A DNA stretch of 61,627 nt, taken from assembly GCA_964354795.1 (NCBI GenBank), contig CAYHBB010000005.1, positions 1-61,627 of the forward strand, read 5' to 3'. The notes beneath the pieces were generated by a model. That model had not been told where the DNA came from. It ran no database searches and was given only the letters and a program-made list of their open reading frames with translations. A program made the position numbers and the translations under genes. Position 1 is the first letter of the stretch, and every line of letters begins with the position of its first letter. Shown piece after piece: positions 1,855-58,587 of the stretch. Source of the stretch: an uncultured Planctomycetales bacterium. GTDB taxonomy: Bacteria > Omnitrophota > Gorgyraeia > Gygaellales > Profunditerraquicolaceae.

Positions 1855-2460
1855 TTACTCCTTATTTTCTTTAAGATAGGGCTTTATGGCGTTATAAATC
1901 CTGCCGGCGATAACCGTATAACCGCTAGCGTTAGGATGCAGAAAGTCGCTTTTCATGGAAGGGTTGGTAAGGATTCCATTAAGTATCGCCGGGACGAATA
2001 TCACCCCTTCTTCCCGGGCCAACTTCCTAAAGGCGAGGCGGTAGTCCCTCAAAAAGAACCCCGCGCTGATATCCACCAGCGCCACTATCGCCCCCTTTTC
2101 CTGGCTCTTACGTATGATCTGGCGCAGGTTGCGGATTGTGGCCTCCATCGGAACCTTCTTTATAAAATCATTTCCGCAAAACTCAACAATTACTAAGTAG
2201 GGATCCTTATCTAATACGTCCTCCTGCAAGCGCCTGAAAGCAAGAATAGTAGTATCTCCGTCCACTCCGGAATTGATCACCGGCATACGCACATATTTCT
2301 TAAGAGCAGTGGGATAGTCTTCCGCCGGGGCTGCGCCATAACCAAAGGTCAGGCTGTCGCCGAAACAGATTATCTCTTTACCCTTAGCTGTGCCGGCATT
2401 CTTAATCTCTTGTTTAGCGCAGCCAAAAAATAATCCCGCCGCCAGGAGACAAACAACCAT
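1855..2460 (-). CDS. SGNH/GDSL esterase-lipase (TesA-like) lipoprotein
   Basis: FGDSLTFGYG (block I), SGVDGDT, CGNDF, and a lipobox LFFGC. The tracked ORF extends to 2604 only by translating the family A repeat, so the ATG at 2460 was chosen. Confidence 0.75.
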   Translation of the reverse strand: MVVCLLAAGLFFGCAKQEIKNAGTAKGKEIICFGDSLTFGYGAAPAEDYPTALKKYVRMPVINSGVDGDTTILAFRRLQEDVLDKDPYLVIVEFCGNDFIKKVPMEATIRNLRQIIRKSQEKGAIVALVDISAGFFLRDYRLAFRKLAREEGVIFVPAILNGILTNPSMKSDFLHPNASGYTVIAGRIYNAIKPYLKENKE

Positions 2461-2463
2461 CGC

Positions 2464-2590
2464 TTGACACCCTGACACCCACTTGAGTTTTCCGGTCCTT
2501 GACACCCCCTGCAATTTTACGAACCGCTGATACCCGCATAATTTTCCGGAGCTTTGACACCCACTTGAGTTTTCCGGTCCTTTGACACCC
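2464..2590. repeat. Family A tandem repeat array, locus 1 (27/28-nt units)
   Basis: TGACAC(C/T)C octamers start at 2465, 2473, 2500, 2528, 2555 and 2583. The unit is TGACACCCACTTGAGTTTTCCGGTCC(T)T. The array fills the whole gap between rlmN and the SGNH gene. Confidence 0.9.
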
Positions 2591-3616
2591 TTATCTTTTC
2601 TCATACTTAAGCCTCAGTTGCCCACACGCAGCGTCGATATCCTGGCCGCGGGACTTACGCAAAGTCACCTGGATCCCTTGCTTGATCAGGTAATCCTTGA
2701 AATACAAGACCTCCAACTTCCCCGGCGGCTGGACATTCATCTCTTTGATGGGATTAGAAGGAATAAGGTTTACCTTGGCTAAACGTAACGGCTTTAATAT
2801 TTTAGCCAAATCCTTGACACTTTGCAAATCCGAATTAAATCCTTTGATCAAAACATACTCAAAAGTGATCTGGCGGTCGGTCTTTTTGATATAATCCTGA
2901 CATGCGGCCATCAACGCTTTAAGCGGATACTTCTTGTTCACCGGCATAAACCGAGAGCGGATTAAATCACTCGCGGCATGCAAGGAAATGGATAGCTCTA
3001 TCTGCAATTTTTCCTGCGCCAGCTTTTTCATTGCGGGAATCACCCCGCATGTGGATATCGTGATCCGGCGCGCGCCTATCCCAATTCCGTCAGGAGAATT
3101 GATCACCCTGATCGCCTTCAGGACTTCATCATAATTATCCAGTGGCTCGCCTGTGCCCATAAAAACTATATGCGTAAGTTTTTTTACGAAGTTCAGAAGC
3201 AGTATCTCTTCCAGAATTTCCCCGCTGGCCAGATTACGCTTAAACCCCGATTGCCCGCTGGCGCAAAAAGTGCAAGCGTACTTACACCCCACCTGGCTGG
3301 ATATGCAACCGGTCACCCTGCCTTCAGCCGGAATAATCACTGCCTCAATTAGATTTGCATCAGGCAGCCGGATGAGGAATTTCTGAGTCCCGTCTATAGA
3401 ATCTTGCTGCTTGGCGATCTTTGACCCCAAAATAAAGAAATTATCTTCTAGGTGTTTGCGCAAGCCAACGGAAAGATCGCTCATCACAGAAAAATCCCGC
3501 GCGCCTAATTTAAAGATCCAGTTGAATATCTGCTTGGCGTTATATCCAGGCGCGCCCCAGCCCTTAAGAATGGCCTGCAATTCAATAATATTGAGATTTT
3601 TTAAGTCCTGCTGCAT
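2591..3616 (-). CDS. rlmN: 23S rRNA/tRNA adenine-C2 methyltransferase RlmN (radical SAM)
   Basis: CKYACTFCASG radical SAM motif and RlmN/Cfr-type N- and C-terminal architecture, including the conserved C-terminal Cys (DIDAACGQL). Confidence 0.85.
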   Translation of the reverse strand: MQQDLKNLNIIELQAILKGWGAPGYNAKQIFNWIFKLGARDFSVMSDLSVGLRKHLEDNFFILGSKIAKQQDSIDGTQKFLIRLPDANLIEAVIIPAEGRVTGCISSQVGCKYACTFCASGQSGFKRNLASGEILEEILLLNFVKKLTHIVFMGTGEPLDNYDEVLKAIRVINSPDGIGIGARRITISTCGVIPAMKKLAQEKLQIELSISLHAASDLIRSRFMPVNKKYPLKALMAACQDYIKKTDRQITFEYVLIKGFNSDLQSVKDLAKILKPLRLAKVNLIPSNPIKEMNVQPPGKLEVLYFKDYLIKQGIQVTLRKSRGQDIDAACGQLRLKYEKR

Positions 3617-11328: not shown

Positions 11329-12078
11329 TTATTTTCCTTCCAGCTTTTTCACTGCCTCTAACGCAATCGTAATCAGATTTGACTCCGCCATGTAATATAG
11401 GGGATTCATAAATCCCATCTCTCCAGTGATGACATTGTCGCTGATTGCCAGGATCGAGCCTGCCTTTATTTTGTAAGTCTGGGCGATAGTAAGCAGGGTC
11501 GAAGAGACCATGTCCACTACTTTTGCGCCTTCTTTGCGCTTGACTTCCACTATTTCGCGTGTCTCACGAAGAAGCGCGTCAGTGGTCCAAGCCACGCCGC
11601 GGTGCACATTCAGGCCCATGCTTTTTGCGATATCATACATGGTGTCGGAGATCTTTTTATCGGCAACTGTCTTGAAATCTTTATCCACGTAATACGGGGT
11701 GACCCCGTCGCCGCGGATTACTTCATCTACAATAAATAAATCTCCGACTTTAATAAACTCATCCAAAGAGCCCGCGGTGCCGATACGAATAATATTCTGG
11801 ATCTCGGCATTGCACATCACTTCCGCGGTGATGGCGGTGTCAGTAGAGAACCTTCCGCCGTTCATGGCCGTGATCTTGATGCCGTTGAACATGCCGGTGT
11901 ACATATTATACTCCATGAAAGAGAAGTTCTTCACGGGATTTTCTATTTTTTTCAAAAGCACATCCAGCCTGTCTTTTGGCCCTGGGACAATGGCGTATTT
12001 ACCCACATCCTGCGGCCTGAGCTGCACCATCTGCGTCAGGTCCTTACCCGTCATATGCACATCTTTTTGCATCTGCAT
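11329..12078 (-). CDS. PNP/UDP-family nucleoside phosphorylase (candidate MTA/5'-dA phosphorylase)
   Basis: RIGTAGSL motif and VDMVSST. The ATG at 12078 was chosen because AGGAGAG lies 6 nt upstream. The longer tracked ORF only translates the family B leader. Confidence 0.65.
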   Translation of the reverse strand: MQMQKDVHMTGKDLTQMVQLRPQDVGKYAIVPGPKDRLDVLLKKIENPVKNFSFMEYNMYTGMFNGIKITAMNGGRFSTDTAITAEVMCNAEIQNIIRIGTAGSLDEFIKVGDLFIVDEVIRGDGVTPYYVDKDFKTVADKKISDTMYDIAKSMGLNVHRGVAWTTDALLRETREIVEVKRKEGAKVVDMVSSTLLTIAQTYKIKAGSILAISDNVITGEMGFMNPLYYMAESNLITIALEAVKKLEGK

Positions 12079-12090
12079 GTTTACTCTCCT

Positions 12091-12133
12091 TTCACAGTAA
12101 GTGAAACACTGGCCTATCCTATAAGGCCAGGTG
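12091..12133 (-). promoter_or_regulatory. Family B leader element (hairpin 1 plus hairpin 2, abutting the SD)
   Basis: Minus-strand RNA: CACCTGGCCT-TATAGGAT-AGGCCAGTG, then TTTCAC-TTACT-GTGAAA, then GGAGAG. Confidence 0.7.
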
Positions 12134-12162
12134 TTAAAAATTCCTGTTTCTCGCGGGCTATA

Positions 12163-14267: not shown

Positions 14268-14378
14268 GGTTATCAGTATATCGGAATATCAGTTGGCGGA
14301 ATATCAGGATAGCAGGTTTAGTTTTCTCTGATTCCCTGATATTCTGAACGCTGATTCTCTAATTCCCTGATAATCTGG
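14268..14378. repeat. Family D inverted-repeat element (TATCAG/CTGATA arms), copy 1
   Basis: The left arm carries repeated (A/T)ATCAG and the right arm repeated CTGAT(A/T). It is collinear with 39824-39928 (GGTTATCA..ATATCGG..ATATCAG....CTGATATTC...CTGATAATCTG). Confidence 0.8.
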
Positions 14379-16877: not shown

Positions 16878-17675
16878 TTATAAAATCGCCACTACTCGCG
16901 CCCAGGCAGCACCGGTTTGCCTGATGCGCACCGGAAAACAAATGATCTTAAATCCGGAATCCGGCAACTTTTCTAAATTAGCCAGACGCTCGATATGAAT
17001 AAATTCTCGTTTGCGGCCATAAAAATGCGCCGGGTAAAACTTTTTCGGATTTTTTTCCTCTAAAAACTCTTTAAGCATAAAACGGTACGGCCGATCAATA
17101 CCCATAGTATCTACGCCAAAAACCTTAATCCCCTTGTCCATAAGATAATCAATTGCCGAGACATCTATTCCGGGATAATCGGTGAAATACTTCGGTCCGC
17201 CGTAAAACTTATCCGCGCCTGTACGCAATAAAACTATATCCAAAGCTTTAAGTGTATAGCTGATTTTCTTTAAGGCCTCTTCTATATCTTGGGAGGTGAT
17301 GGACTCAGCCGGTTTTTTATGCGACATATCCAGCTTCACGCCGTCCTGATAACAATACTCTAGAGGGATCTCATCCGCGGTTTTTGAAGGCCGGCCCTCA
17401 GATTTTGTGCCATAATGGAAAGAGTAATCCAGGTGGGTGCCTACATGCACCGGCGCATGTACCACTTCAAGGGAAAGAAACTCTTCATCCGGCAGATCTT
17501 CTTTTCTTAAGATGCGTTTACCCAGAAGATACTGAATCCTGCCTTTTAAGGTCTTCCCCATGATCACCCGGTTGAATTTCTCCACCCCGGCGGCATGCGT
17601 TACCCGCTCGATTTGGACACGGTGGACCTCAAAAGCCTTTTCGTCTATGGGCAGGCTTAAATCTACTATCTTCAT
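16878..17675 (-). CDS. Cyclase-family protein (PF04199, kynurenine formamidase-like fold)
   Basis: HVGTHLDYSFH matches the HxGTHxDxPxH-type metal motif. Confidence 0.7.
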   Translation of the reverse strand: MKIVDLSLPIDEKAFEVHRVQIERVTHAAGVEKFNRVIMGKTLKGRIQYLLGKRILRKEDLPDEEFLSLEVVHAPVHVGTHLDYSFHYGTKSEGRPSKTADEIPLEYCYQDGVKLDMSHKKPAESITSQDIEEALKKISYTLKALDIVLLRTGADKFYGGPKYFTDYPGIDVSAIDYLMDKGIKVFGVDTMGIDRPYRFMLKEFLEEKNPKKFYPAHFYGRKREFIHIERLANLEKLPDSGFKIICFPVRIRQTGAAWARVVAIL

Positions 17676-17973: not shown

Positions 17974-19434
17974 TTAAATCAACACTTCTCCATTGACCGC
18001 TGCCGCTTCCCACTTGTTAAGGTTATCCAACTGGTCCTTGAAACACAGCTTGGCAAGCGGGTCGAAATTACTCTCCATGATGCGGTTGATGCGTCCGGGC
18101 TTGGAGAAGAATTCACGCATGCACCAGGAACCCAGACGACCAAGGTCTTCCGTAGTCAGATGATCAGTGGGGATGACCGGATGCAAGAAATCCCAGGTAG
18201 AGAAATCCACTTTCTTCGGATCGATCCAGCCTTTCTTAAGCGCAATCCTCCACATCGGAGAGTTCGGGGCAGGAGTAACGTAACCTAACCACAGAATATC
18301 CGGATCCACCGCGTCGCTATACTCAAAACGCTTCTTGATAATAGCTTCGGTATCATGGTCAAAACCCATCATGATATCCGCGACAATAGCAATATCGTTT
18401 TTACGCAGGATATCAATGGTCTTTTGTATCTGATCAAGAGTGGTGCCTTTAGCTATTTTCTTAAGCTCTGATTGGGTGGTCACCTCGATGCCGAAAACGC
18501 CCATAAACAAACCATTTTCTTTCATCAGGGGCAGGATGGATTCGCAATTGACCCAGTCAATGGCCCGTCCCAAAGACACCCATTTGATGGGATTATTAGA
18601 TGCTTTTTTAAGTTCACAGAACTTCTGCACCCTGGCAGGGTCGACATTAAAATTATCGTCCTGAATGACCACAACCTTAACTCCATACTTTTTGTGCAGA
18701 AGATTCAGTTCCTCCATCACCCTTTCCGGAGACTTAGCGCGCCACTTTAAAAAGTCTGAGGGGGAACGCGGATCAAATTGATCCCACTCATAGCAAAATG
18801 TACAAGCTGAGGGGCATCCGCGGGAAGTGACCATATCCACAAACGGCTTCCAATAGGTGTGGCCCACGTATTTATCCATCGGGAACAGGTCATACGCCGG
18901 CAAAGGAAGCTTATCCAGATCCTCCATGAGCGGCTTATGCGGCCCCATGATTATCTCGCTGCCTACGCGTGAGGTTACACCACCCACATCCTTAAGCGGC
19001 TTATTCTTATCTATGGCTTCGATCAGGTCTCCGAAAGACTCCTCTTCCCCCATGACCACAAAATCAACTGCTGGATTCTCTTCCAGCGTCGGCACAGGCA
19101 TGGCTGAATACCACAACCCGCCAAGCACTATCTTTGTCTTAGGCAGCGCTTTTTTAATTCCTGCTGCCGCATCTTTAAAGTGGCGCAAAACTCCATAGCC
19201 ACCATAGCCGTGCAGCTGCTCACCCATTACTACCACATCCGGCGCTTTTTCTTTTACTTTTTCAATAAGCTGGTCCATGGGGATCTGCTCAGCCCTGCCG
19301 TCTATGACCGACACATCCTCATATCCTCTTTCCCGCACATATGCGGCCCAGTGCGCATAAAGCTGATTTGGCGAGCGGTGTATTCCGTGTGATGCCCAGG
19401 CGCCGACTTTCGGCATTACAAAAAGAATCTTCAT
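17974..19434 (-). CDS. B12-binding-domain radical SAM enzyme (class B)
   Basis: N-terminal Rossmann-like B12 domain (KILFVMP..., VVVMGE), then TSRGCPSACTFC (CxxxCxxC). Confidence 0.8.
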   Translation of the reverse strand: MKILFVMPKVGAWASHGIHRSPNQLYAHWAAYVRERGYEDVSVIDGRAEQIPMDQLIEKVKEKAPDVVVMGEQLHGYGGYGVLRHFKDAAAGIKKALPKTKIVLGGLWYSAMPVPTLEENPAVDFVVMGEEESFGDLIEAIDKNKPLKDVGGVTSRVGSEIIMGPHKPLMEDLDKLPLPAYDLFPMDKYVGHTYWKPFVDMVTSRGCPSACTFCYEWDQFDPRSPSDFLKWRAKSPERVMEELNLLHKKYGVKVVVIQDDNFNVDPARVQKFCELKKASNNPIKWVSLGRAIDWVNCESILPLMKENGLFMGVFGIEVTTQSELKKIAKGTTLDQIQKTIDILRKNDIAIVADIMMGFDHDTEAIIKKRFEYSDAVDPDILWLGYVTPAPNSPMWRIALKKGWIDPKKVDFSTWDFLHPVIPTDHLTTEDLGRLGSWCMREFFSKPGRINRIMESNFDPLAKLCFKDQLDNLNKWEAAAVNGEVLI

Positions 19435-29472: not shown

Positions 29473-31137
29473 CTATTTGTTAAATACTTCTTTGAGTATG
29501 GTATTAGCAATGCTCTCTGCGAGAAGACGATTGCCTTTTCCTGTACAGTGACCGAAGTCGCCGCCGAACATATCATTAAAGTATTCTCGGTAATCGGTTT
29601 TCTTAAGAGCATCTTTAAATATCTTTTCGTTATCTACAAACATAATGCCTTCTGCATTACCTTGGAATATCCTCTTAAGCGTCTCTAAATTTCGCATGGG
29701 ATACTGCACACAAACATACGCTATACCTCTTTTGTCTAAGATCGCTTTAAGCTTATTATAATTGTCAGTTGTAATTGGATAATAGTAGCTTGATCTTAAT
29801 TCCTTGGCCTTTTTACCATATTCCCTAGCAAGCCTTAGGCTATCCATTTCTCCAAATAATAACTCTAGCGCTCCATATATCCTATCGTCTTTAGGGTCGA
29901 GTTCTAGAGCCTTTTTGAATAACTCCTCAGCCTCAAGAAATCTATTTTGGGCTTGATAAAACTTTCCCAGCCCAAAATATACCAACTCGTTTTTGGGGTT
30001 GAGCTCTATAGCCTTCTTAAATGACTCCTCAGTCTCAGGGAATCTACCCCAGCTTAGATAAAAATTTCCCAGCTCATAATATGCCCAATCGTCTTTAGGG
30101 TTAAGCTCTATAGCTTTCTTGAATAACACCTCAGCCTCAGAGAATCTGCCCTTGCGCTGATAAGAAATCCCTAGCCCAATATATGCCCACTCGTTATTAG
30201 GGTTGAGCTCTATGGCTCTCTTGAATAACTCCTCAGCCTCGGAGAATCTGCCCTTGCTTTTATAAAGCCTTCCCAGCCCAAGATATGCCCAATCGTTTGT
30301 GGGCTTAAGCTCTATAGCCTTCCTGAATAACTCCTCAGCCTCAAATAATCTACCCATGTTTTGATAAGAATCACCTAGCCCAAAATATACATAATCGTTT
30401 TTGGGATCGAGCTCTATGGCTTTCTTGAATAACTCCTCAGCCTCAGAGAATCTACCCTTGTTTTGATAAAGCTTTCCCAGCTCAATATATGCCCACTCGT
30501 TTTTGGGGTTGAGCTCTATAGCCTTACTGAACTTTAATAATGCTTCACTTGACGGAGCATCCTTGTCTTCTGCATAAACCTGTTGTAATTCGACTCTTTG
30601 AAGGAGAGGCTTAGGCTGTTTTGAATCTTTTAATTTGGTTACAATATGTAACCAAAGGAGCCTGCTTAATTTATAGGTTCTAAAAGACTTTAAAAAATTT
30701 ATAAACTTCGAATCAGAAATAGCCTCATAAGGCAGATGCGGACCCATGTCATTAATCCCCATCATAGTAATGACCATATCCGGATGGTATGTCTCGAGAT
30801 CAGATTCAAGCATGGATAATATAGCGGCTGTACTTGTTCCGATAATACCCTTGTCTATCACGCTGAATTTTATGCCGATATTGCGCTGATTGAGTATTTC
30901 TTCCAGAAAAAGCGGATACTGCCCTGCGGTGGTGGATTCACCCAGGCACATAATACGATAAGTCCCTTTTTTGCTGATAGAGGCCCTGTTGCTGTGCTCC
31001 TGGATTGACAACAATACAAACCCTCCCAGGCGTAATCCTATCTCAAGGATAACAACAGTCAAAAATAACCCGAATATTATCAGAGCTATTTTTTGCCAAA
31101 ACGAAGTTTTAGTTAGGGTTTGATTGTTTCGGCTCAT
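29473..31137 (-). CDS. Membrane-anchored SGNH hydrolase interrupted by a TPR array
   Basis: IMCLGESTTAG (block I), MMGINDM (block III), then about 8-9 TPRs (KAIELNPKN...AY..LG), then GGDFGHCT (block V, DxxH). Confidence 0.65.
   Translation of the reverse strand: MSRNNQTLTKTSFWQKIALIIFGLFLTVVILEIGLRLGGFVLLSIQEHSNRASISKKGTYRIMCLGESTTAGQYPLFLEEILNQRNIGIKFSVIDKGIIGTSTAAILSMLESDLETYHPDMVITMMGINDMGPHLPYEAISDSKFINFLKSFRTYKLSRLLWLHIVTKLKDSKQPKPLLQRVELQQVYAEDKDAPSSEALLKFSKAIELNPKNEWAYIELGKLYQNKGRFSEAEELFKKAIELDPKNDYVYFGLGDSYQNMGRLFEAEELFRKAIELKPTNDWAYLGLGRLYKSKGRFSEAEELFKRAIELNPNNEWAYIGLGISYQRKGRFSEAEVLFKKAIELNPKDDWAYYELGNFYLSWGRFPETEESFKKAIELNPKNELVYFGLGKFYQAQNRFLEAEELFKKALELDPKDDRIYGALELLFGEMDSLRLAREYGKKAKELRSSYYYPITTDNYNKLKAILDKRGIAYVCVQYPMRNLETLKRIFQGNAEGIMFVDNEKIFKDALKKTDYREYFNDMFGGDFGHCTGKGNRLLAESIANTILKEVFNK
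29899..30545. repeat. 102-nt periodic DNA repeats encoding the TPR units
   Basis: (G/A)AGCTCTATAGC-like anchors occur at 29899, 30001, 30103, 30205, 30307, 30409 and 30511, an exact 102-nt spacing. Confidence 0.9.
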
Positions 31138-35446: not shown

Positions 35447-36829
35447 TCACTTTCCTATACAAAATTTAGAAAATATCCTATCTAATAAACCCTCTGAAAA
35501 CTTCTTTCCCAATAATTCGTCTAAATATCCCAGGCTGTCTTTAACATCCTGGGCAATAAGCTCTATAGACGCTTTATTATCCACTGAACCGGCAGATTGC
35601 GCAATAAGTTTTTGGGCTTCCCGCAGGCAGGAGACATGCCTGAGGTTTCCCACCACCACCGATTCCGGGCCGATGACCTTACCTTTATATACCAACTCTA
35701 CGATTTTATCTTCCAAAAGATTTATATTCCTGGCTTTCTTTGCCGAAAGAGAGATCGTATGAATAAACTGCTTAGTGATCTTTTCCCTTTCAATCTTTTG
35801 TTTTAAATCCATCTTATTGATAATGGCGATGGCCTGTTTGCCCTTTAACGATCTAATAATATCCCTGTCCTGCGCTGATAATTTTCTGCTTCCGTCAAAA
35901 AGGATTACAACGATATCCGCCTGGGCAATATGCTTCTTTGAGCGCTGGACAGCTTTCTTCTCGACTAAACCCCGCGGATTAAGCATCCCTGCGGTATCCA
36001 CGATGCGGACCGGAATACCTTTTATGTCGATAATCTCCTCGATAGCATCGCGAGTGGTGCCGGCAACATGCGTGACAATAGAACGCTCATGCTTAAGCAG
36101 GGCATTCAATAACGAGGACTTGCCCACATTAGGCTTACCGCAGATAACCACGTATATCCCTTCACGAAAGATCCTGCCGCGCCTTGAGCTTGCCAGCATG
36201 GCTTTCAGTTTACCGTCGCACTCTCTTAAGCCTGCACCAACGCTATTAAAATCTACAGTGTCGTTTGCATCTTCGGGAAAATCAATGCTCGCTTCAAGTT
36301 GAGTAAGGATATCCAAAAGAACATCCCTGATTTTATTAAGTTCTGCCGACAGCGCCCCTTTTAGCTGCCCAAGGCCGATCCTTAAGGCAGAATCAGTCTT
36401 GGCGCGGATAATATCCAGAACCGCCTCGGCCTGGGCTAAATCAATCCTGCCATTTAAAAACGCCCGCTTGGTGAATTCACCCGGCTCAGCTAAACGCGCT
36501 CCGTTTACCAAAGCTAGGTCCAAAACATCCCGCAAAGCCACTATCCCGCCGTGGCAATTGATTTCCACTACGTCTTCTTTAGTATAGGAGCGGGGAGCGC
36601 GCATCACCGTAAGGATCACCTCATCGATTATTTCCCCGCCGTTCTTTATTAAACCGTAATGGATAGTGTAGCTCTTAAAATCCGATGGCTTTATCTTTCC
36701 TTTAGAAAAAAATATTTTATCTGTAATTGCCAACGCACCCTTGCCGCTTAAGCGCACGATCCCGATCCCGCCAACGCCCACAGGCGTAGAAATCGCAGCG
36801 ATGGTATCATCGATATTATACTTATGCAT
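35447..36829 (-). CDS. mnmE: tRNA modification GTPase MnmE
   Basis: [13 protein letters not shown]1 motif, DTAG, and the C-terminal CIGK. Confidence 0.9.
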
Positions 36830-38213
36830 TTCTCAGCTCTCCCACCACAAATAGAGACCCTGTCCCAAGGATAAGGTCGTCTTTTGCAGCAAGCTGTATT
36901 GCTTCCTGCTTCGCCTCTTTTACGCTGCTAGTTAAAAGATAATTCCTGCCTTTAAAATATCGGCTTAAAACCTTGGGGTTTTCTGCTCGCGGATTATCGG
37001 CGCAGGTCAAGATAACCTGATCAGCTAAACTATAAAGCTCATTACAAATCCCTTTAATATCTTTGTCCTTGGATATTCCTAGCACTAGGATCAATTTCTT
37101 ATATTTAAAATTGTTCCTGATGGTTTCTTTTAATGCTTTTACGGAAGCGATATTCTGAGCTCCGTCGAGCACAACCAAAGGATTCCTGGACACAACCTCA
37201 AACCTGCCCGGCCATTGAGTATTCAAGAGCCCTCTTCGTATTATCTTTTGGCTTATCCCTGACTTAAGCGCCTTGACTGCGCTAACCGCAACCGCAGCGT
37301 TTATCCGCTGATGCTTTCCAAACAAAGGAAGCTTTATCCCCATTAAAGGCTTATTTATTTCCTGTAACACTACCCCGACTTCTTTACATCTATTACGGAT
37401 TACAATTGCCGCTTCTTTTTCCTGCGGCGCACTTATCACAATCGCCTGACACCCACTTGAGCTTTCCGGTCCTTTGACACCCACTTGAGCTTTCCGGTCC
37501 TTTGACACCCATTCGAGCTTTCCGGTCCACTGATACCCTTTAATAATCCCCGCCTTCTCCCTTGCGATCTCTCGCAAGGTTTTCCCCAGCTTCTGGGTAT
37601 GCTCGTAGCTGATGGGCGTGATCACGCTTACCAGGGCATTGGCGGTATTAGTCGCATCCAGCCTTCCGCCTAAACCAGTCTCCAGCACCGCGAAATCCGT
37701 CTTCTGCTCCTTAAAATACACAAAGGCTAAAGTAGTATACACTTCAAAAAATGACAGCGGCCCGTATTTTGAGCCTTGATTATACCTATCTATCTCCGGC
37801 TTTAATTTGCTAACTATCCTAGCCAATTCAAGCTTGGCAACCATCCCCTCAAACGGATCTGACACTTTGACACCAACTTCAGCTTTCCGGACTTTTGACA
37901 CCAACTTCAGCTTTCCGGCTTTTTGACACTCTAATATACGAATTCTCTCCCGAAAGTCGGATAAATGCGGAGAGGTATAAAGCCCGACCCTGAACCCCGC
38001 TTCCCGCAATATATAGGTAATGAAGGCACAAGTCGAACCCTTGCCCTTAGTGCCGGCTACATGGATACAACGCAAATGGCTTTGAGGATTGCCGATGAGA
38101 GAAAGAAAATCTTTAATGCGCTCCAGCTTCAGGGATTGTTTATAAGGATAGTCGATGAATTTTTCGTAATTAACAAAACTCTCGAGGTATTTTATTGTCT
38201 GAGGGTAGGTCAT
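36822..38213 (-). CDS. folC: Folylpolyglutamate synthase / dihydrofolate synthase carrying two repeat-encoded insertions
   Basis: VAGTKGKGST P-loop, ETGLGGRLDATN, IAREKAGIIK. At 463 aa it is about 45 aa longer than I recall for typical FolC. The excess coincides with the family A arrays. Confidence 0.85.
   Translation of the reverse strand: MTYPQTIKYLESFVNYEKFIDYPYKQSLKLERIKDFLSLIGNPQSHLRCIHVAGTKGKGSTCAFITYILREAGFRVGLYTSPHLSDFRERIRILECQKAGKLKLVSKVRKAEVGVKVSDPFEGMVAKLELARIVSKLKPEIDRYNQGSKYGPLSFFEVYTTLAFVYFKEQKTDFAVLETGLGGRLDATNTANALVSVITPISYEHTQKLGKTLREIAREKAGIIKGYQWTGKLEWVSKDRKAQVGVKGPESSSGCQAIVISAPQEKEAAIVIRNRCKEVGVVLQEINKPLMGIKLPLFGKHQRINAAVAVSAVKALKSGISQKIIRRGLLNTQWPGRFEVVSRNPLVVLDGAQNIASVKALKETIRNNFKYKKLILVLGISKDKDIKGICNELYSLADQVILTCADNPRAENPKVLSRYFKGRNYLLTSSVKEAKQEAIQLAAKDDLILGTGSLFVVGELRNA
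37447..37538. repeat. Family A tandem repeat array, locus 2 (inside folC)
   Basis: Three 28-nt units start at 37447, 37475 and 37503, plus a terminal octamer TGATACCC at 37531. The three units total 84 nt, or 28 codons. Confidence 0.9.
37860..37931. repeat. Family A variant array, locus 3 (inside folC)
   Basis: TGACAC octamers at 37860, 37868, 37896 and 37924. Two 28-nt units read TGACACCAACTTCAGCTTTCCGG(A/C)(C/T)TTT. Confidence 0.9.
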
Positions 38214-39792: not shown

Positions 39793-39823
39793 CGATCTTT
39801 CTCCCGTAAAAACAATTAACTGC

Positions 39824-39928
39824 GGTTATCATCATATCGGGATATCAGTAGGCAGAATATTAGGTATCAGCGGATCAGGTTAAATCTGATACCCTGATTT
39901 TCTGATATTCTGCCTACTGATAATCTGA
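39824..39928. repeat. Family D inverted-repeat element, copy 2
   Basis: A 17-bp perfect arm, ATCAGTAGGCAGAATAT, pairs with ATATTCTGCCTACTGAT. Flanking TATCAG/CTGATA repeats are collinear with 14268-14378. Confidence 0.85.
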
Positions 39929-39945
39929 TTTTCTGATACCCACAT

Positions 39946-40647
39946 TTACTTATTAAACCTGAAGTTAACCAAGTCCGCATCCTGCATCACGTATTCTTTT
40001 TGCTCCAAGCGCTGTTTGCCTGCCTGCTTGGCCTGGTTCTCTCCTCCGCATTTTATAAAATCATCAAAGCTGATGATCTCCGCCCGGATAAAACCCTGCT
40101 GGATATCCGAGTGTATGGCACCTGCGGCTTCCCAGGCAGTAGTGCCCTTGCGGATCAGCCAGGCCCGGGTCTCTTTTTCTCCGGTAGTAAAAAAGCTGAT
40201 GTACCCGCCCTCGCGCACTGCGCGGCTAAGCAAAGCGTTCGGCTCTTCAGCCTCCGACTTCTCGGAGGTGATCACCGGCCGGCTAGTGAGCATCCCGTAC
40301 TTGATCAGCGCTTTCTTTTCCTCTTCGCTTAAGGCCACATTACAAACTAGCTGTTCCTTCTCAAGTGAGACCTTTACTTTATTCAACAGCGTTTTTTCCG
40401 CCTCATCCGCCGAGCGGGAAAACCGGGTCTCCGCAAATTCCAAATCTTTTAGAATCAAATCTGCGGCAGAATCTCTTGCCACTAGTATTGCGTCGGAATC
40501 AAGCGCCGCATCTTCGGCAACCGCCTCGATCTGTATATAAGTCTTTTTCTTGGCTTTGGTAATGGAGTCCACCTGGTCAAGGCGGGCGTCCTTAATATTA
40601 TGCTTGCCCGGGTTTATCTCGGGAATAGAAATAATACTGATCTTCAT
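39946..40647 (-). CDS. YchF/OLA1-like protein lacking the P-loop G domain
   Basis: The C-terminal half matches YchF (ETRAWLIRKGTTAWEAAGAIHSDIQQGFIRAEII...VNFRFN). The N-terminus (MKISIISIPEINPGKHN) has no GxxGxGKS and the protein is only 233 aa. Confidence 0.6.
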   Translation of the reverse strand: MKISIISIPEINPGKHNIKDARLDQVDSITKAKKKTYIQIEAVAEDAALDSDAILVARDSAADLILKDLEFAETRFSRSADEAEKTLLNKVKVSLEKEQLVCNVALSEEEKKALIKYGMLTSRPVITSEKSEAEEPNALLSRAVREGGYISFFTTGEKETRAWLIRKGTTAWEAAGAIHSDIQQGFIRAEIISFDDFIKCGGENQAKQAGKQRLEQKEYVMQDADLVNFRFNK

Positions 40648-42611: not shown

Positions 42612-42890
42612 GGCAAGACTCCTTTCGCAGAAAGCGAAACACCAACCTTTCCTATAAGGTTGGGTGTTACAGTAAGCTACGCCCTATAAAGCCAGGTGTA
42701 AGCAGTAAGCAAAACACCAACTTTTCCTATAAAGTTGGGTGTTGCAGTAAACTACACCCCAGCTATAAGGTATGCTGGGTGTGTCCTTTTTAGGACTACA
42801 CCCCAGCTATAAGGTATGCTGGGTGTGTCCTTTTTAGGACAAAACACCGGCCTTTCCTATAAAGCCAGGTGTTTGCTTTAAAGGTAAGAG
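42612..42890 (-). ncRNA. Long structured leader of the EF-G2-like gene (array of family B hairpins)
   Basis: Hairpins lie at 42623-42639, 42639-42667, 42714-42742, 42844-42872 and in the two units at 42752-42839. Three have AGGA in the loop in the mRNA sense. Confidence 0.6.
42752..42839. repeat. Exact 44-nt direct tandem duplication (two hairpins per unit)
   Basis: CTACACCCCAGCTATAAGGTATGCTGGGTGTGTCCTTTTTAGGA occurs at 42752-42795 and again at 42796-42839. Confidence 0.95.
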
Positions 42891-53718: not shown

Positions 53719-56064
53719 TTATTTTACCTTCTCAAAAACCACCCTTTGCTTGATTTTTTTCGCCAGGCCCTCGTAAAACTTTTTAAATTCCGCGTACTCG
53801 CTTTCGAGGATAGCCTGTTTCTTAAACACCGTATCCTGCCTGAAAAACAAAAGATTATTCTTAAAACTGTACTCTACGCTCACACCCATCCAAGGGCTAT
53901 CCTCGGATATATTGCCGGGAATAAATTTAGCTGTATAAGTTTTTGGCACAGCGATCTCAAAAATCGTTTCCTTCTTATCTAAGACGCTGAAATCCAATGC
54001 ATAAAACCGTTTATCTTTAGCGACCAACGCTGTGTCAAGGCCAGCCAGCTGCGGCATAAGGCGCAAGCTACCGGCAACGGTAAAATATTCCGGGCCGGAA
54101 AAAGAGTATTTCAGCTCCACCGGCTTATTCAGGTCATTAAGATTAGCGATAGCGTAGTCTTTAAGCGTGGCTCCGATAGAAAATTCCTGGATCCTTTCTT
54201 TTAATTGCGCCTCGATCAGCTCCGGCTGGGTATAAAGCAGCCAATAGCGTTGACCCTGATCATAAATCCCGTAGGTAAAAATATCTTTCTTTGCCAGAAT
54301 AGTCTCATCATCATTGATGCTGATGCGTGTGGATTGTCTGACCAGATTGTGCTCTGGCTCATAAAGCGGCGTAGTCTCTATACGGAATTTATCCTCTTGG
54401 CAGATGAATACCGTGCGCGCCTGATCGCCAGCCGGGAGATCTGCGAAAGAACAGGTCTGGGCCGTGGGATCAAGAAAAATGATCCTGTCATTTAGCAATA
54501 CGCTTGCAATACAGTGGTCGAAAAGCATCGCCGGAAAATCCGGGTTCAGGTTGTAGTAATCTTTAGTGGGGATAAGCACCGGCCAGGCCTTAAAGCCGGC
54601 ATCTTTTAACATAGTTACCAATAATATCGCCTGGTCTTTACAATCGCCGTATTTATTACGAAATATATCCGCTGCCTGATGCGGCTCAAATCCCGCCTGT
54701 CCGTATTCCACCGCCACATAGCGGATATCTTTGGCGCAAAAATTGTAAATGGAACGGACTTTTTCCTCATCAGTCTTAAGGCCGCGGATCAATTGTTGCA
54801 CCTTGTCTTTTATAGCGGCATCCGCCTGGATTTTATCCTTAGCTAGCTTCCACCACCAATCGTATAACTCCTGCCACTCTTTAAAAGAAGACAAAATCAC
54901 GGTGGGAGTGATCTCTACCACAGGAGGCATATCCGCTTCGCTGATTATTTGAGGAATGTCTTTGAACTTCCAACGCAAAGTGACGATGCCATCTTTTTCC
55001 TCTTTCTCAGGAGTAAGCTTAGCTCCAAAAGTATTATACCGCTCATTAATGATCTTAAGGTTAGCGGGATTTTCTTTAGGAAAGCTCACGATAAAATCCG
55101 CGGAAATTATCGGATCAGCTGACTGCAGCGAATAAGGGACCCCATAATCCTTCTTATTTACCAGCTGGTTGCGGTAAACTTTAAGCTTATACTCCACGCT
55201 TACGCCATCGGCAATCTCAGGGAATGAAATAATAAAAACGCGGGCGTTGCTGTAGAGGGGAAAATTAAGATACTTGGATACGTCGCGAATATGACGCGCG
55301 CCCACATCTACCACCGTACCGTCGCGCTTGATGGTACGGGCGTATTCCAGCTCGACTTTCTCGTAAGTGGAATCATACTCGATCTTGGCCTCGGAAAAAT
55401 CTTCTTTACCGCGCTCATTAAGGATCTTTACCAGATAATGCAAGCGTGAAACTTCGGTATTTTCCCGGGTGACCTCGATACTTTCATTACACAGAAGGAT
55501 CAATGCCCCTGCCTGCGGATAAAGCTCCTCGCTTGGCGCATTGGCGATTGCCTGATACGACTCCGGGCTCAGCTCCCTGATATTGCGACCGACAGCCAAC
55601 CGCTCTATAGCCTCAATACGCTCTGCGGCAAGGAAAGCAAATTCTTTTTCTTTTATCTTCTTGTAAGCAGCAAGAGCAGGATCAAAAAGATTTAACTTTT
55701 CGCAAGTCAATCCCTTATAATACAGACATTCGTCGTCAGAACTGTCGATCTTGTCAAGGACCTCCAGCGCGTCGGTAAACTCTTGGCTGCGATAAAATGA
55801 TATCCCCAAAAACTTTTTCGCCTGAGGCAGGCCGCTCTTGGCAAAACACTCTGTGGCTTCTTTAAACGCGCCATGGCCAAGATACAGTTTACCGAGGTCA
55901 AAATAAAGCTGATCAACATTCTGCCCCTTTATTATCTCCTGCTTGTAACCGGCAAGCGCCTCCTGGTAATATTGTTCTGATTTTCTAGCCAGCTGCTGCG
56001 CTTCAGTGCCAGCATTCGCCCCGCATCCGGCTATAAACAACGCCACTAAAATGACCCCTGACAC
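53719..56064 (-). CDS. TPR + DUF3857-like + transglutaminase-like domain lipoprotein
   Basis: Lipobox LFIAGC, and YGDCKDQAILLVTML transglutaminase core Cys. The GTG start lies inside a family A repeat, so the start is uncertain. Confidence 0.65.
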   Translation of the reverse strand: MSGVILVALFIAGCGANAGTEAQQLARKSEQYYQEALAGYKQEIIKGQNVDQLYFDLGKLYLGHGAFKEATECFAKSGLPQAKKFLGISFYRSQEFTDALEVLDKIDSSDDECLYYKGLTCEKLNLFDPALAAYKKIKEKEFAFLAAERIEAIERLAVGRNIRELSPESYQAIANAPSEELYPQAGALILLCNESIEVTRENTEVSRLHYLVKILNERGKEDFSEAKIEYDSTYEKVELEYARTIKRDGTVVDVGARHIRDVSKYLNFPLYSNARVFIISFPEIADGVSVEYKLKVYRNQLVNKKDYGVPYSLQSADPIISADFIVSFPKENPANLKIINERYNTFGAKLTPEKEEKDGIVTLRWKFKDIPQIISEADMPPVVEITPTVILSSFKEWQELYDWWWKLAKDKIQADAAIKDKVQQLIRGLKTDEEKVRSIYNFCAKDIRYVAVEYGQAGFEPHQAADIFRNKYGDCKDQAILLVTMLKDAGFKAWPVLIPTKDYYNLNPDFPAMLFDHCIASVLLNDRIIFLDPTAQTCSFADLPAGDQARTVFICQEDKFRIETTPLYEPEHNLVRQSTRISINDDETILAKKDIFTYGIYDQGQRYWLLYTQPELIEAQLKERIQEFSIGATLKDYAIANLNDLNKPVELKYSFSGPEYFTVAGSLRLMPQLAGLDTALVAKDKRFYALDFSVLDKKETIFEIAVPKTYTAKFIPGNISEDSPWMGVSVEYSFKNNLLFFRQDTVFKKQAILESEYAEFKKFYEGLAKKIKQRVVFEKVK

Positions 56065-56122
56065 CCACTTGAGCTTTCCGGTCCATTGACACCCACTTGA
56101 GCTTTCCGGTCCGCTGACACCC
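56059..56122. repeat. Family A tandem repeat array, locus 4
   Basis: 28-nt units start at 56059 and 56087, with a terminal octamer at 56115. The array fills the gap between the hypD stop and the next start. Confidence 0.9.
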
Positions 56123-57213
56123 TATCTATGATATTTATAGTAAGCATTACACGCTCCTTCATGCGAAACCATGCACGGGCCCACCGGATTATCCGGAGTG
56201 CAGGCCCTGGCAAACAGCGGGCAAAGATCAGGCCGGATCAGGCCTTTTAAAACTTCCCCGCAAAGGCATTTCTTTATCTTTGCGTCATACTTTGTGACCC
56301 GCTTAAAAACAAATTTCTTCGAGGCGTCGAACCCGGAAAATTCTTGTCTTAACGTCAGGCCGCTTTTAGGGATCTTTCCCAGTCCACGCCAGGAAGCACC
56401 TGCAGGCTGAAAAACCCGATTGATAATCTTTACGCCTTTAGGATTCCCTTGTTTCTTTACTACCCGGATGTATTGATTATCCACCCGCGGCTTGTTTTGT
56501 GCCAATTGACGCATCAATAGATAAATACCTTCCAAAATATCCAGCGGCTCAAATCCAGCGACACAGCTGCCGATACGGTATTTCTTCACCAGGAATTCGT
56601 AAGGCCGGGTGCCGATGATGCTGGAGACATGTCCGGGGCAAAGAAAACCGTCGAGCTTAAGCCTTTTATCCCGGCATAAATATTCCATAGCCGGAGTGAT
56701 CAATTTTAAAGCGCACGAAAATGTAAGGTTGGGGATCTTTTCTTTCTTGGCGGCAAGGATAGTCAGAGCGATGGTGGGAATAGTAGTCTCAAACCCCACC
56801 GCCAGAAATACTACCGACTTATCAGGGTTAGCCCGGGCCACACTGATGCTCTCAAGCGGCGAATATACCACCCGGATACTTCCTGAACGAGCCCTCTCCT
56901 TTTCCAGCGTAGAAAACGTACCCGGAATACGCAGCATATCCCCGAAGGTAAGGATGAGCGCGTCTTTTCTTTTGGCCAAAGCAATGGCCGCGTCGATATA
57001 CTCCTGGCTGCTTACGCACACCGGGCATCCCGGCCCGGCGATAAGCCGTAGGTTTGCGGGAAGCATCTTATCCAGCCCGAAGCGGAAGAAATTCTGAGTA
57101 TGTGTGCCGCAGACCTCCATGATATTCACCTGCCTAGGAGGCGTAACTGCGCGGATACCTTCCGCAACTTTCCTGACTAACTTTATATCGCGGTATTCGT
57201 CAACGAATCTCAT
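56122..57213 (-). CDS. hypD: Hydrogenase maturation protein HypD
   Basis: MEVCGTHT, GPGCPVCV, FETT, and the C-terminal Cys cluster PVGPCMVSHEGAC. Confidence 0.9.
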   Translation of the reverse strand: MRFVDEYRDIKLVRKVAEGIRAVTPPRQVNIMEVCGTHTQNFFRFGLDKMLPANLRLIAGPGCPVCVSSQEYIDAAIALAKRKDALILTFGDMLRIPGTFSTLEKERARSGSIRVVYSPLESISVARANPDKSVVFLAVGFETTIPTIALTILAAKKEKIPNLTFSCALKLITPAMEYLCRDKRLKLDGFLCPGHVSSIIGTRPYEFLVKKYRIGSCVAGFEPLDILEGIYLLMRQLAQNKPRVDNQYIRVVKKQGNPKGVKIINRVFQPAGASWRGLGKIPKSGLTLRQEFSGFDASKKFVFKRVTKYDAKIKKCLCGEVLKGLIRPDLCPLFARACTPDNPVGPCMVSHEGACNAYYKYHR

Positions 57214-57504: not shown

Positions 57505-58587
57505 TTACCTCATGCCTGCGACCACTGCCTGGCCAAGAGACAGGCCGGAATCATTACAGGACAATTTTTTGTTTATAAAGACCTTAAACCCTTCCTTATA
57601 TAATAAATCCAAACTCAGGCGTAGCAAAAGGTTATTTTGGAACACTCCGCCCGACAAAACCACATTGCTGATCTTAAATTTTCTTTTTAAGCGGATGCAA
57701 ACCTCAGTGATCATCTGGGCCACAGCCAGATGAAAGCGATAGGCGATCTCAGGTTTTACCTCTTTGGCTTTCAGGTCTTTTATTATCTGCCGGAATACTG
57801 GCGTCGGGTCAATGATATAGCTTCCTTTGTCTTTTATGACTTTGAATTTATAGCTTATGGATGACGCCTCAAAGTTAAAAGCTTTTTTTCCAAGCTCAAT
57901 AGCCAATTCCGCCTCAAAATTCGCCTGGCATTTCCCCAATATCAATACCGCCGCCGCATCAAATAATCTTCCCATGCTGCTGCTTAAGGGAGAGTTAAAT
58001 GCTTTTGCCTGCACCCTTTTCACCAAGCCCCACTCTTTTCTTTTAACTAAAGCGGGCCTATCCAAACCTAAAGCTGCCAACAGCCTCCATGGCTCAAGTA
58101 TGGCTTTTTCTCCTCCGATAAGCGCAACCTCTTTTAAATGCGCGGCTCGGATAAAGTTTTTATAATCGCAAACCAAAAACTCCGCTCCCCAAAGGCTGCC
58201 GTCGCGGCCTAAGCCGGTTCCGTCAAAAGCTACGCCTATCACTAACTTGTTCTTCAGCCCGTTCTCAGCCATGCAGCCGGCGATATGCGCATGGTGATGC
58301 TGCACTTCTGATACGCTGATCCCCTGATTCTCTGATACGCATTCACGCGCATATTTACTTGAGAAATACTCCGGATGTAAATCGCAGGCGACCATTCTTG
58401 GCTTTTTCTTCAAAAAGCATTTCGCATCTTTTTCGAATGCCGAAAGGTCCCTTGGGTCGCTTAAGTCTTTGTGCACTGCGCTGATATAGGCGGTTTTATT
58501 CTGGGCAAAGCAAACGGTATTCTTGACCTGACTTCCCAGGGCCAAAATCGAACGCTTGAGAGAAACCGGAAGGGCGATTTTTATCAC
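57505..58587 (-). CDS. hypF: HypF C-terminal (Kae1/YrdC-associated) half only, lacking the acylphosphatase and zinc-finger domains
   Basis: LALGSQVKNTVCF, VQHHHAHIAGCMAENGL, GVAFDGTGLGRDGSLWGAEF. The GTG start at 58587 has GGAGAT 5 nt upstream and overlaps the preceding stop (GTGA). Confidence 0.7.
   Translation of the reverse strand: MIKIALPVSLKRSILALGSQVKNTVCFAQNKTAYISAVHKDLSDPRDLSAFEKDAKCFLKKKPRMVACDLHPEYFSSKYARECVSENQGISVSEVQHHHAHIAGCMAENGLKNKLVIGVAFDGTGLGRDGSLWGAEFLVCDYKNFIRAAHLKEVALIGGEKAILEPWRLLAALGLDRPALVKRKEWGLVKRVQAKAFNSPLSSSMGRLFDAAAVLILGKCQANFEAELAIELGKKAFNFEASSISYKFKVIKDKGSYIIDPTPVFRQIIKDLKAKEVKPEIAYRFHLAVAQMITEVCIRLKRKFKISNVVLSGGVFQNNLLLRLSLDLLYKEGFKVFINKKLSCNDSGLSLGQAVVAGMR

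Follow-up and report, generated by a model that had tools for sequence, protein, structure and literature searches.

Several described repeat systems come close to the sequence family reported here. In cyanobacteria, SDR elements of 21-27 nt are said to lie within tandem heptamers (STRR) or within the HIP1 octamer, as reportedly described by Elhai and colleagues in 2008, and the RPE of Rickettsia, attributed to Ogata and colleagues in 2000, are reportedly selfish DNA inserted in frame into protein-coding genes. The CTCTT repeats in the signal-peptide coding region of Neisseria opa make a contingency locus. The SDR work (Elhai 2008) is cited in PMC3116915, and RPEs are mentioned in PMC1779305 and PMC10969869. 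Heptanucleotide repeats, e.g., TAACTGA in Beggiatoaceae, and long SSRs of 5-11 nt are mainly intergenic, and units that are multiples of a triplet dominate coding regions (PMC4679880, summarising Mrazek et al. 2007). In oipA of Helicobacter pylori, CT repeats in the signal-peptide region switch the reading frame (PMC10564699).

Family A occurs in four tandem arrays in the window, by which we mean the whole 61,627-nt stretch analysed; the DNA examined comprises about 61 kb of this genome and fragments of its relatives. Its nearest analogue is SDR within STRR. Like the cyanobacterial element, Family A is an insert of about 20 nt nested between copies of a 7-8-nt repeat, dispersed, apparently confined to a clade and without an encoded enzyme; filled sites read octamer-20 nt-octamer, and empty sites hold three heptamers, two octamers or four octamers. 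Unlike SDR, an element of Nostocales, it belongs to an Omnitrophota host and forms tandem 28-mers, and its copies are seen mostly inside ORFs and are apparently translated. SDR4-6 have a conserved secondary structure, whereas no hairpin was found in the unit or array of Family A, and the arrays fold no better than shuffles.

With RPE, Family A shares in-frame, stop-free insertion into housekeeping genes, peptides outside the folded core and copies that also lie outside genes; such insertions were found twice in folC and in lpxK, queC and the signal peptide of an SGNH lipoprotein. RPE are single palindromes of 100-150 bp, whereas the 28-nt unit of Family A is not palindromic, stands in tandem and is read successively in each of the three frames. 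As with the long SSRs, non-triplet tandem repeats are abundant in certain lineages, some right at gene starts, with slippage as the presumed driver; unlike them, units of 7, 8 and 28 nt lie within essential genes and add up to whole codons. Arrays 1 and 4 resemble opa and oipA in that the start codon of an exported protein is separated from its body by a non-triplet repeat, with alleles one unit and one frame apart; unlike those loci, the unit has 28 nt, is present in only 2-4 copies, also occurs in cytosolic enzymes and is known here from consensus assemblies. REP and REPIN are palindromic extragenic units of 20-40 nt, often arranged as inverted doublets, whereas the Family A unit is non-palindromic and lies within genes in the window, although doublets on related contigs (L013-L015) do fold (z = -4.5). 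A MITE has terminal inverted repeats, a TSD and a length of 50-500 bp; inverted ends are lacking in the 20-nt insert, and although the octamers beside it might pass for an 8-bp duplication, such octamers also occur at sites without the insert. Unlike a CRISPR array, the units stand head-to-tail without unique spacers. Family A departs in at least one defining property from each of RPE, SDR4-6, MITE and CRISPR, and apparently also from REP.

The 28-nt unit and its arrays in the window

The Family A unit is 28 nt long and consists of the 8-nt TGACACCC and a further 20 nt; in gene sense (- strand) it reads as the conserved octamer GGGTGTCA and the 20-nt insert AAGGACCGGAAAGCTCAAGT. When up to 3 mismatches were allowed, the unit TGACACCCACTTGAGCTTTCCGGTCCTT matched the window 6 times on the + strand and not at all on the - strand, and 100 shuffles gave 0 matches. 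With up to 9 mismatches, nine units were found, all on the + strand, and the octamer TGACACCC is present in 11 copies on + and 0 on -. TRF reported a period of 27/28 at 2473-2590, 37447-37538, 37866-37929 and 56058-56122. A preliminary description had proposed a 27/28-nt tandem unit at four loci, and this is borne out by the mismatch search, the shuffles and TRF. The arrays are as follows:

2465..2590, - strand: array 1, an octamer, four units and an extra terminal octamer in gene sense; 126 nt, or 42 codons
37447..37538, - strand: array 2, three units and a TGATACCC octamer; in frame in folC, at site 2 after EKAGIIK
37860..37931, - strand: array 3, an octamer, two variant units (of the CCAACTTCAG type) and an octamer; 72 nt, or 24 codons; in frame in folC, at site 1 after RERIRIL
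56059..56122, - strand: array 4, two units and an octamer, at the hypD/lipoprotein junction

Array 1, earlier placed at 2464-2590, was confirmed, with its start shifted to 2465. Its units measure 28, 27, 28 and 27 nt, the middle two having diverged, and because two of the four are one base short the array amounts to whole codons. The layout of n units plus one octamer recurs at every locus. Insertion edges fall exactly at octamers, and the flanks beyond the octamers are not shared. The earlier statement that every array starts and ends with TGACAC(C/T)C holds approximately, the departures being the TGATACCC at the end of array 2 and the TGACACTT at the start of array 3. In array 4, the leading G of the first octamer doubles as the final base of the hypD TAG stop, and the last octamer is the source of a GTG at 56064.

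In gene sense, none of the three frames of the unit AAGGACCGGAAAGCTCAAGTGGGTGTCA contains a stop (KDRKAQVGV, RTGKLKWVS and GPESSSGCQ), and the opposite strand does contain stops; on both points the preliminary description was right. Once at least two units are joined, stops appear in every frame of the opposite strand. Since 21% of random 28-mers of the same base composition are likewise open in three frames, this openness is a precondition, not a signal. All genes near the arrays lie on the - strand, and the GC skew of the + strand is uniformly negative in the window. The arrays share their orientation with the genes and with the G-rich strand, which confounds the orientation rule within the window.

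The blocks CCGGAAA and GGTGTCA are the best conserved over about 40 units. Arrays 2 and 4 have an identical 25-nt core, and the core of array 1 differs by 1 base, unlike the orthologous arrays of relatives, which diverge; this implies that the loci have exchanged sequence or that insertion was recent. Folding the RNA of both strands of every array detected no structure (z from 0.06 to 1.99 against shuffles), a promoter and terminator scan found no consensus in the arrays, and the Rfam search of the window returned no family at the arrays, its only hits being two tRNAs at 75-147 and 357-439.

Coding context in folC and two lipoprotein genes

Two of the arrays are read through by a single gene:

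36822..38213, - strand: folC, 463 aa, with an ORF that reads straight through arrays 2 and 3

Array 2 encodes ...YQWTGKLEWVSKDRKAQVGVKGPESSSGCQ... in folC, and the array peptides of the gene are ...ILECQKAGKLKLVSKVRKAEVGVKVSD... and ...KGYQWTGKLEWVSKDRKAQVGVKGPESSSGCQAIV.... Along three consecutive 28-nt units the reading passes through each frame once, returning to the original frame after 84 nt. The closest protein matches to the window FolC are FolC of Candidatus Omnitrophota, 419-494 aa long, and their alignment places the arrays as insertions after RERIRIL (site 1) and EKAGIIK (site 2). In an AlphaFold model of the window FolC (mean pLDDT 77.8), values below 50 occur only at residues 17-28, 99-120, 181-183, 205-208 and 228-255; the two long stretches, 99-120 (array 3) and 228-255 (array 2), are the array peptides and have no secondary structure. 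In a comparison with the solved Thermotoga FolC (PDB 1O5Z), hardly anything corresponds to query residues 96-124, and only with gaps can the site-2 stretch be aligned, both array peptides being insertions. The model predicts that the folC array peptides are disordered loops. That both folC arrays are insertions of translated sequence had not been brought out in the preliminary description.

At the nucleotide level, folC of L001 and L005 is 0.87-0.88 identical to the window and that of L003 is 0.80 identical. The states at the two sites are as follows:

folC site 2: in L001 and L005, three heptamers (GATCAAG or GGGCAAG); in the window and L003, an octamer followed by three copies of 20 nt plus octamer
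folC site 1: in L001 and L003, one degenerate unit; in the window, two units and an extra octamer (+36 nt); in L005, three units (+57 nt)

At site 2, L003 and the window have in common the unit-1 signature CGA, and a GC versus AT difference between them is present in all three units. Other variants are likewise common to all units of an array: every one of the three units of L003 has AAAATTC, and GCGAAGCCC marks the units of L005 and AAAATGGAAGTT those of L022. These array-specific variants uphold the earlier suggestion of local amplification, or else point to homogenisation.

The other two arrays were described initially as filling the intercistronic gaps between rlmN and the SGNH gene and between hypD and the transglutaminase-like gene, where they would create artificial N-terminal ORF extensions. 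The genes concerned are:

1855..2604, - strand: SGNH/GDSL lipoprotein gene, from ATG 2604, with a 14-nt overlap with the end of rlmN
2591..3616, - strand: rlmN, whose TAA stop abuts the first octamer of array 1
53719..56064, - strand: DUF3857/transglutaminase-like lipoprotein, main part of the gene, which in the window is cut off from the conserved start
56046..56147, - strand: start frame of that lipoprotein, with the conserved ATG at 56147-56145; out of frame through the 2-unit array, with a stop after 33 aa (MLTINIIDRVSADRKAQVGVNGPESSSGCQGSF*)
56122..57213, - strand: hypD, whose 3' end overlaps the conserved lipoprotein start
hypD junction by contig: L019, no repeat; L020, four octamers; window and L021, two units; L009 and L022, three units

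In the SGNH gene, ATG 2604 is in frame across the 126-nt array 1 to MVVCLLAAGLFFGC. The N-terminus reads MRKDK, the array peptide and AMVVCLLAAGLFFGC, and the array is located between the MRKDK start and the hydrophobic core of the signal peptide. Array-free alleles of at least 90% identity begin with MRKNKRVSGCQAAVVFFLGAILLSGC (P0394) and MRKNKWVSGCQAMIVCFLAAGLFFGC (P0398); they open as MRKNK-RVSGCQ-AAVV..., have only two octamers and use the same start as ATG 2604. The 4-unit array is present in the window, P0397 and L023, the last of which matches the window at 98.2% identity. In more distant SGNH homologs, some 10 residues precede the position of the internal ATG. SGNH calls of 199-201 aa were considered as off alleles, and this was ruled out, the upstream ATG being in frame in L023. 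An exact look-up of the window RlmN sequence returned no record.

At the hypD junction, the lipoprotein ATG lies 25 nt upstream of array 4, and six orthologous junctions conserve it. In L019, where there is no repeat, this ATG opens the canonical lipoprotein signal peptide MHISSIVNRASWWIIAVILLIVGCG, and in L020 it is in frame through four pure octamers (MRTLNIANNKVSKCQSVRASGVIVVALLMVGCG). The frame from the conserved ATG is open in the 3-unit alleles (L009, L022 and P0392), and the 2-unit alleles (the window and L021) are out of frame. In the public call, the window lipoprotein begins at an internal start (MALFIAGC..., 775 aa), which leaves an implausibly short signal peptide.

Because the ATGs are conserved and relatives without arrays share the same starts, both arrays fall in signal-peptide coding sequence. 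Gene comparison thus assigns arrays 1 and 4 to the signal-peptide n-region of two lipoprotein genes, and they are not intergenic filler. The idea of artificial extensions is contradicted by the ATG conserved in the six hypD junctions and by the identical start of the SGNH relatives.

Frame, copy number and short repeats among relatives

Multi-unit arrays vary among close relatives. Over 1360 nt, L009 and the window agree at 97% identity but have 3 and 2 units, respectively; the comparison of orthologous loci advised earlier therefore did reveal copy-number differences, which are differences between consensus assemblies. Across 35 kb of synteny with the window, the genome GCA_026387455.1 (L001 and L019) lacks multi-unit arrays at the sites where the window has three. 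An assembly artefact, which the preliminary description had named as a possible refutation, is contradicted by orthologous arrays in independent JGI, ENA, Logan and NCBI assemblies, and it can be ruled out. The constant orientation relative to genes claimed at first holds in the window, but related contigs also have intergenic head-to-head units: in L013/L015 and L014, sense units are followed by antisense units, together forming the long imperfect hairpin with z = -4.5.

The usual coding state is three units (84 nt, or 28 codons). The frame is almost always kept, by three units, by a unit plus an octamer (28 + 8 = 36) or by 1-nt losses. Three units lie in frame in lpxK of L011 and in queC of L012, both found by DNA pattern alone. 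Counting the arrays that were first located by DNA and not by protein homology, 6/7 are in frame, whereas one third would be expected (binomial p about 0.007). This conservation of frame suggests that the arrays are apparently translated in three frames. Essential genes normally do not admit tandem repeats of non-triplet length, yet in this uncultured phylum such repeats are in frame in folC, lpxK, queC and the signal peptides of lipoproteins.

The distribution of the 28-mer appears narrow. A degenerate 23-nt core gave only 3 chance-level matches in 185,579 GTDB species-representative genomes and none in viral contigs, and it matched 7 metagenome contigs. A protein search with an 84-aa translated-array query yielded 145 word-sharing candidates, none with E of 10 or below. 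Array-derived peptides were found only in FolC or lipoprotein homologs that are about 68% or more identical to the window proteins, and the 28-mer would therefore be confined to a narrow Omnitrophota clade of roughly genus level.

Shorter repeats reach much further. Dictionaries of all 10-aa peptides that tandem k-mers can encode were matched to homologs, with a mechanical chance rate of about 1e-6 per window of residues. The set of 120 FolC homologs from Omnitrophota includes 33 with tandem heptamers in translated form and 19 with tandem octamers, and a period-5 dictionary gave 0 matches in the same 120. These segments, of many unit sequences, are all confined to a handful of insertion sites, mainly residues 93-100 and 209-232. 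Lipoprotein homologs contain heptamer segments in 19/120 and octamer segments in 2/120, almost all at residues 7-47, and shuffled lipoprotein sequences gave 0 dictionary matches. TRF on the DNA of L001, L016, L017 and L018 found period-7/8 arrays inside folC and mnmE. Judged by these translated segments, 7/8-nt repeats read in three frames occupy the same hot spots in many distant Omnitrophota homologs. Family A would therefore be a composite unit that arose within such short repeats and still sits among them.

The period-8 repeats of mnmE lie at 11804-11828 in L017 and 12512-12585 in L018, two other Omnitrophota lineages, and MnmE ranges from 460 to 480 aa across loci. In the hypF-like gene of the window, four tandem octamers (NNNNATCA) at 58308-58338 are in frame as CVSENQGISVSE. 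The hypF-like gene and its upstream ORF were also considered as frameshift fragments, and this was rejected because relatives have the same gene structures.

The empty, short-repeat and 28-mer states at orthologous sites offer a natural series for the spread of tiny repeats, the tolerance of proteins to three-frame insertions and the co-option of repeats as phase switches. For annotation, the arrays cause mis-called starts (the window lipoproteins are called as 775 and 201 aa from internal codons) and inflate the length variation of Omnitrophota protein families.

Origin of the arrays and other repeats

The most probable reading, at roughly 0.6, is that Family A is a lineage-restricted dispersed minisatellite, nested in 7/8-nt repeats, resized by slippage and filtered for an open frame. 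Within ORFs the arrays are in sense orientation, they are present, absent or resized among close relatives, and their units are homogeneous within each array. Short 7/8-nt repeats would occupy coding positions that tolerate insertion, namely loops at the surface of enzymes and the n-region in the signal peptides of lipoproteins. Arrays would grow and shrink by slipped-strand mispairing or by unequal recombination between the flanking octamers, and selection would purge antisense or out-of-frame versions in essential genes. The 20-nt insert may reach new octamer sites by microhomology-dependent copying or by a trans-acting activity, and the array peptides would be tolerated as disordered passengers, not as functional domains. 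Several points weigh against this reading. Slippage covers the size changes but not the arrival of the same 20-nt insert at 8 or more unrelated loci, the 25-nt core common to window arrays contrasts with the divergence of their orthologs in relatives, and the two out-of-frame lipoprotein alleles are a misfit with simple purifying selection for frame. Splicing and ribosomal bypass were rejected, as under either of them the frame would need no compensating changes.

A bolder version can be put forward only tentatively. An active, sequence-directed process in Omnitrophota, SDR-like and possibly templated or enzyme-driven, might seed non-triplet repeats of 7, 8 and 8+20 nt into coding DNA, leaving three-frame insertions at hot spots across the phylum; in the present lineage, the 28-nt unit might in addition serve as an on/off counter of exported lipoproteins.

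A contingency (phase-variation) switch, in which a change of one unit turns two exported lipoproteins on or off, is unlikely to be what the family is for. Since 28 equals 1 modulo 3, the gain or loss of one unit shifts the frame, and arrays 1 and 4 are suitably placed between the start codon and the core of a lipoprotein signal peptide. The 97%-identical contigs one unit apart show the predicted pair of states, L009 being in frame with 3 units and the window, with 2, meeting its stop after 33 aa; L021 (2 units, out of frame) and L022 and P0392 (3 units, in frame) follow the same pattern, and 7/8-nt repeats lie in the same N-terminal region of many distant homologs. However, the same family is found in folC, lpxK and queC, where on/off switching is implausible, and the GTG of the last octamer is in frame with the lipoprotein body at any copy number. 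Moreover, the 2-unit arrays could be collapsed assemblies, and the SGNH array does not change between contigs that are 98% identical. Phase variation of the lipoproteins is nevertheless a live secondary hypothesis, as a secondary use of a repeat that is at base a dispersed minisatellite.

Less probable still is a very small mobile element, in which a dedicated enzyme would insert the 20-nt piece at GGGTGTCA and duplicate the 8-bp target, as for a MITE, REPIN or SDR. Such insertion would yield n units plus one octamer, the layout seen at every locus, and it would agree with edges exactly at octamers, flanks with nothing in common beyond them and empty alleles that still have tandem octamers. 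The head-to-head doublets of related contigs, with their long hairpin, are arranged as in REPINs, and a Y1 transposase flanked by hairpin repeats is present in the relative L018. The 20-nt piece, however, has neither a terminal inverted repeat nor a hairpin, a single 28-nt insertion would frameshift an essential gene, and the variants that run through every unit of an array point to local amplification rather than to repeated insertion. In addition, tblastn found no Y1 transposase in the 61.6-kb window. An array of cis-acting DNA or mRNA binding sites (GGA or Shine-Dalgarno-like motifs for a CsrA-type protein or the ribosome, or antisense TTGACA -35-like boxes) is very improbable: the conserved CCGGAAA and GGTGTCA blocks, and the AAGGA and GGGTG in sense and TTGACA in antisense of each unit, would suit it, but copies lie inside coding loops of unrelated enzymes, they are absent from close relatives with the same gene order, and the arrays have no promoter or terminator consensus and no structure.

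Other repeats were observed in the window and in related contigs. Intergenic imperfect palindromes of NNNNATCA octamers (CTGATACC and similar) lie at 39816-39941 and 14268-14372 of the window; the former folds with z = -7.6 and has a related copy at L011:3961-4092. They probably represent another repeat family, palindromic in this case, with an octamer of the same kind as its building block. The 233-aa protein encoded at 39946-40647, after an EF-G-like gene, has the YchF C-terminal domain only; this ychF-like gene was rejected as a frameshift fragment, the same short form being present in relatives. Between 42612 and 43045 are about seven REP-like hairpins of the form ACACC-stem-TATAA-stem-GGTGT, with a perfect 44-nt tandem duplication at 42751-42840. 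Their relatives lie at 12076-12134 and at L011:597-656, and their stem ends resemble the Family A octamer. A 43-nt tandem repeat at L001:9600-9682 resembles these hairpins in appearance. In L018, a 159-aa Y1 transposase (PF01797) at 18319-18923 has 23-nt hairpin repeats (TTTCCGAT...ATCGGGAAA) on both sides, a typical RAYT-REP layout; the 23-nt repeat is different from Family A, and a 53-nt tandem repeat of 4.1 copies lies nearby at 17056-17271. Finally, TRF found a 102-nt tandem repeat of 6.3 copies at 29884-30525 of the window, inside a 554-aa ORF; its period of 34 codons suggests ordinary protein repeats such as TPR units.
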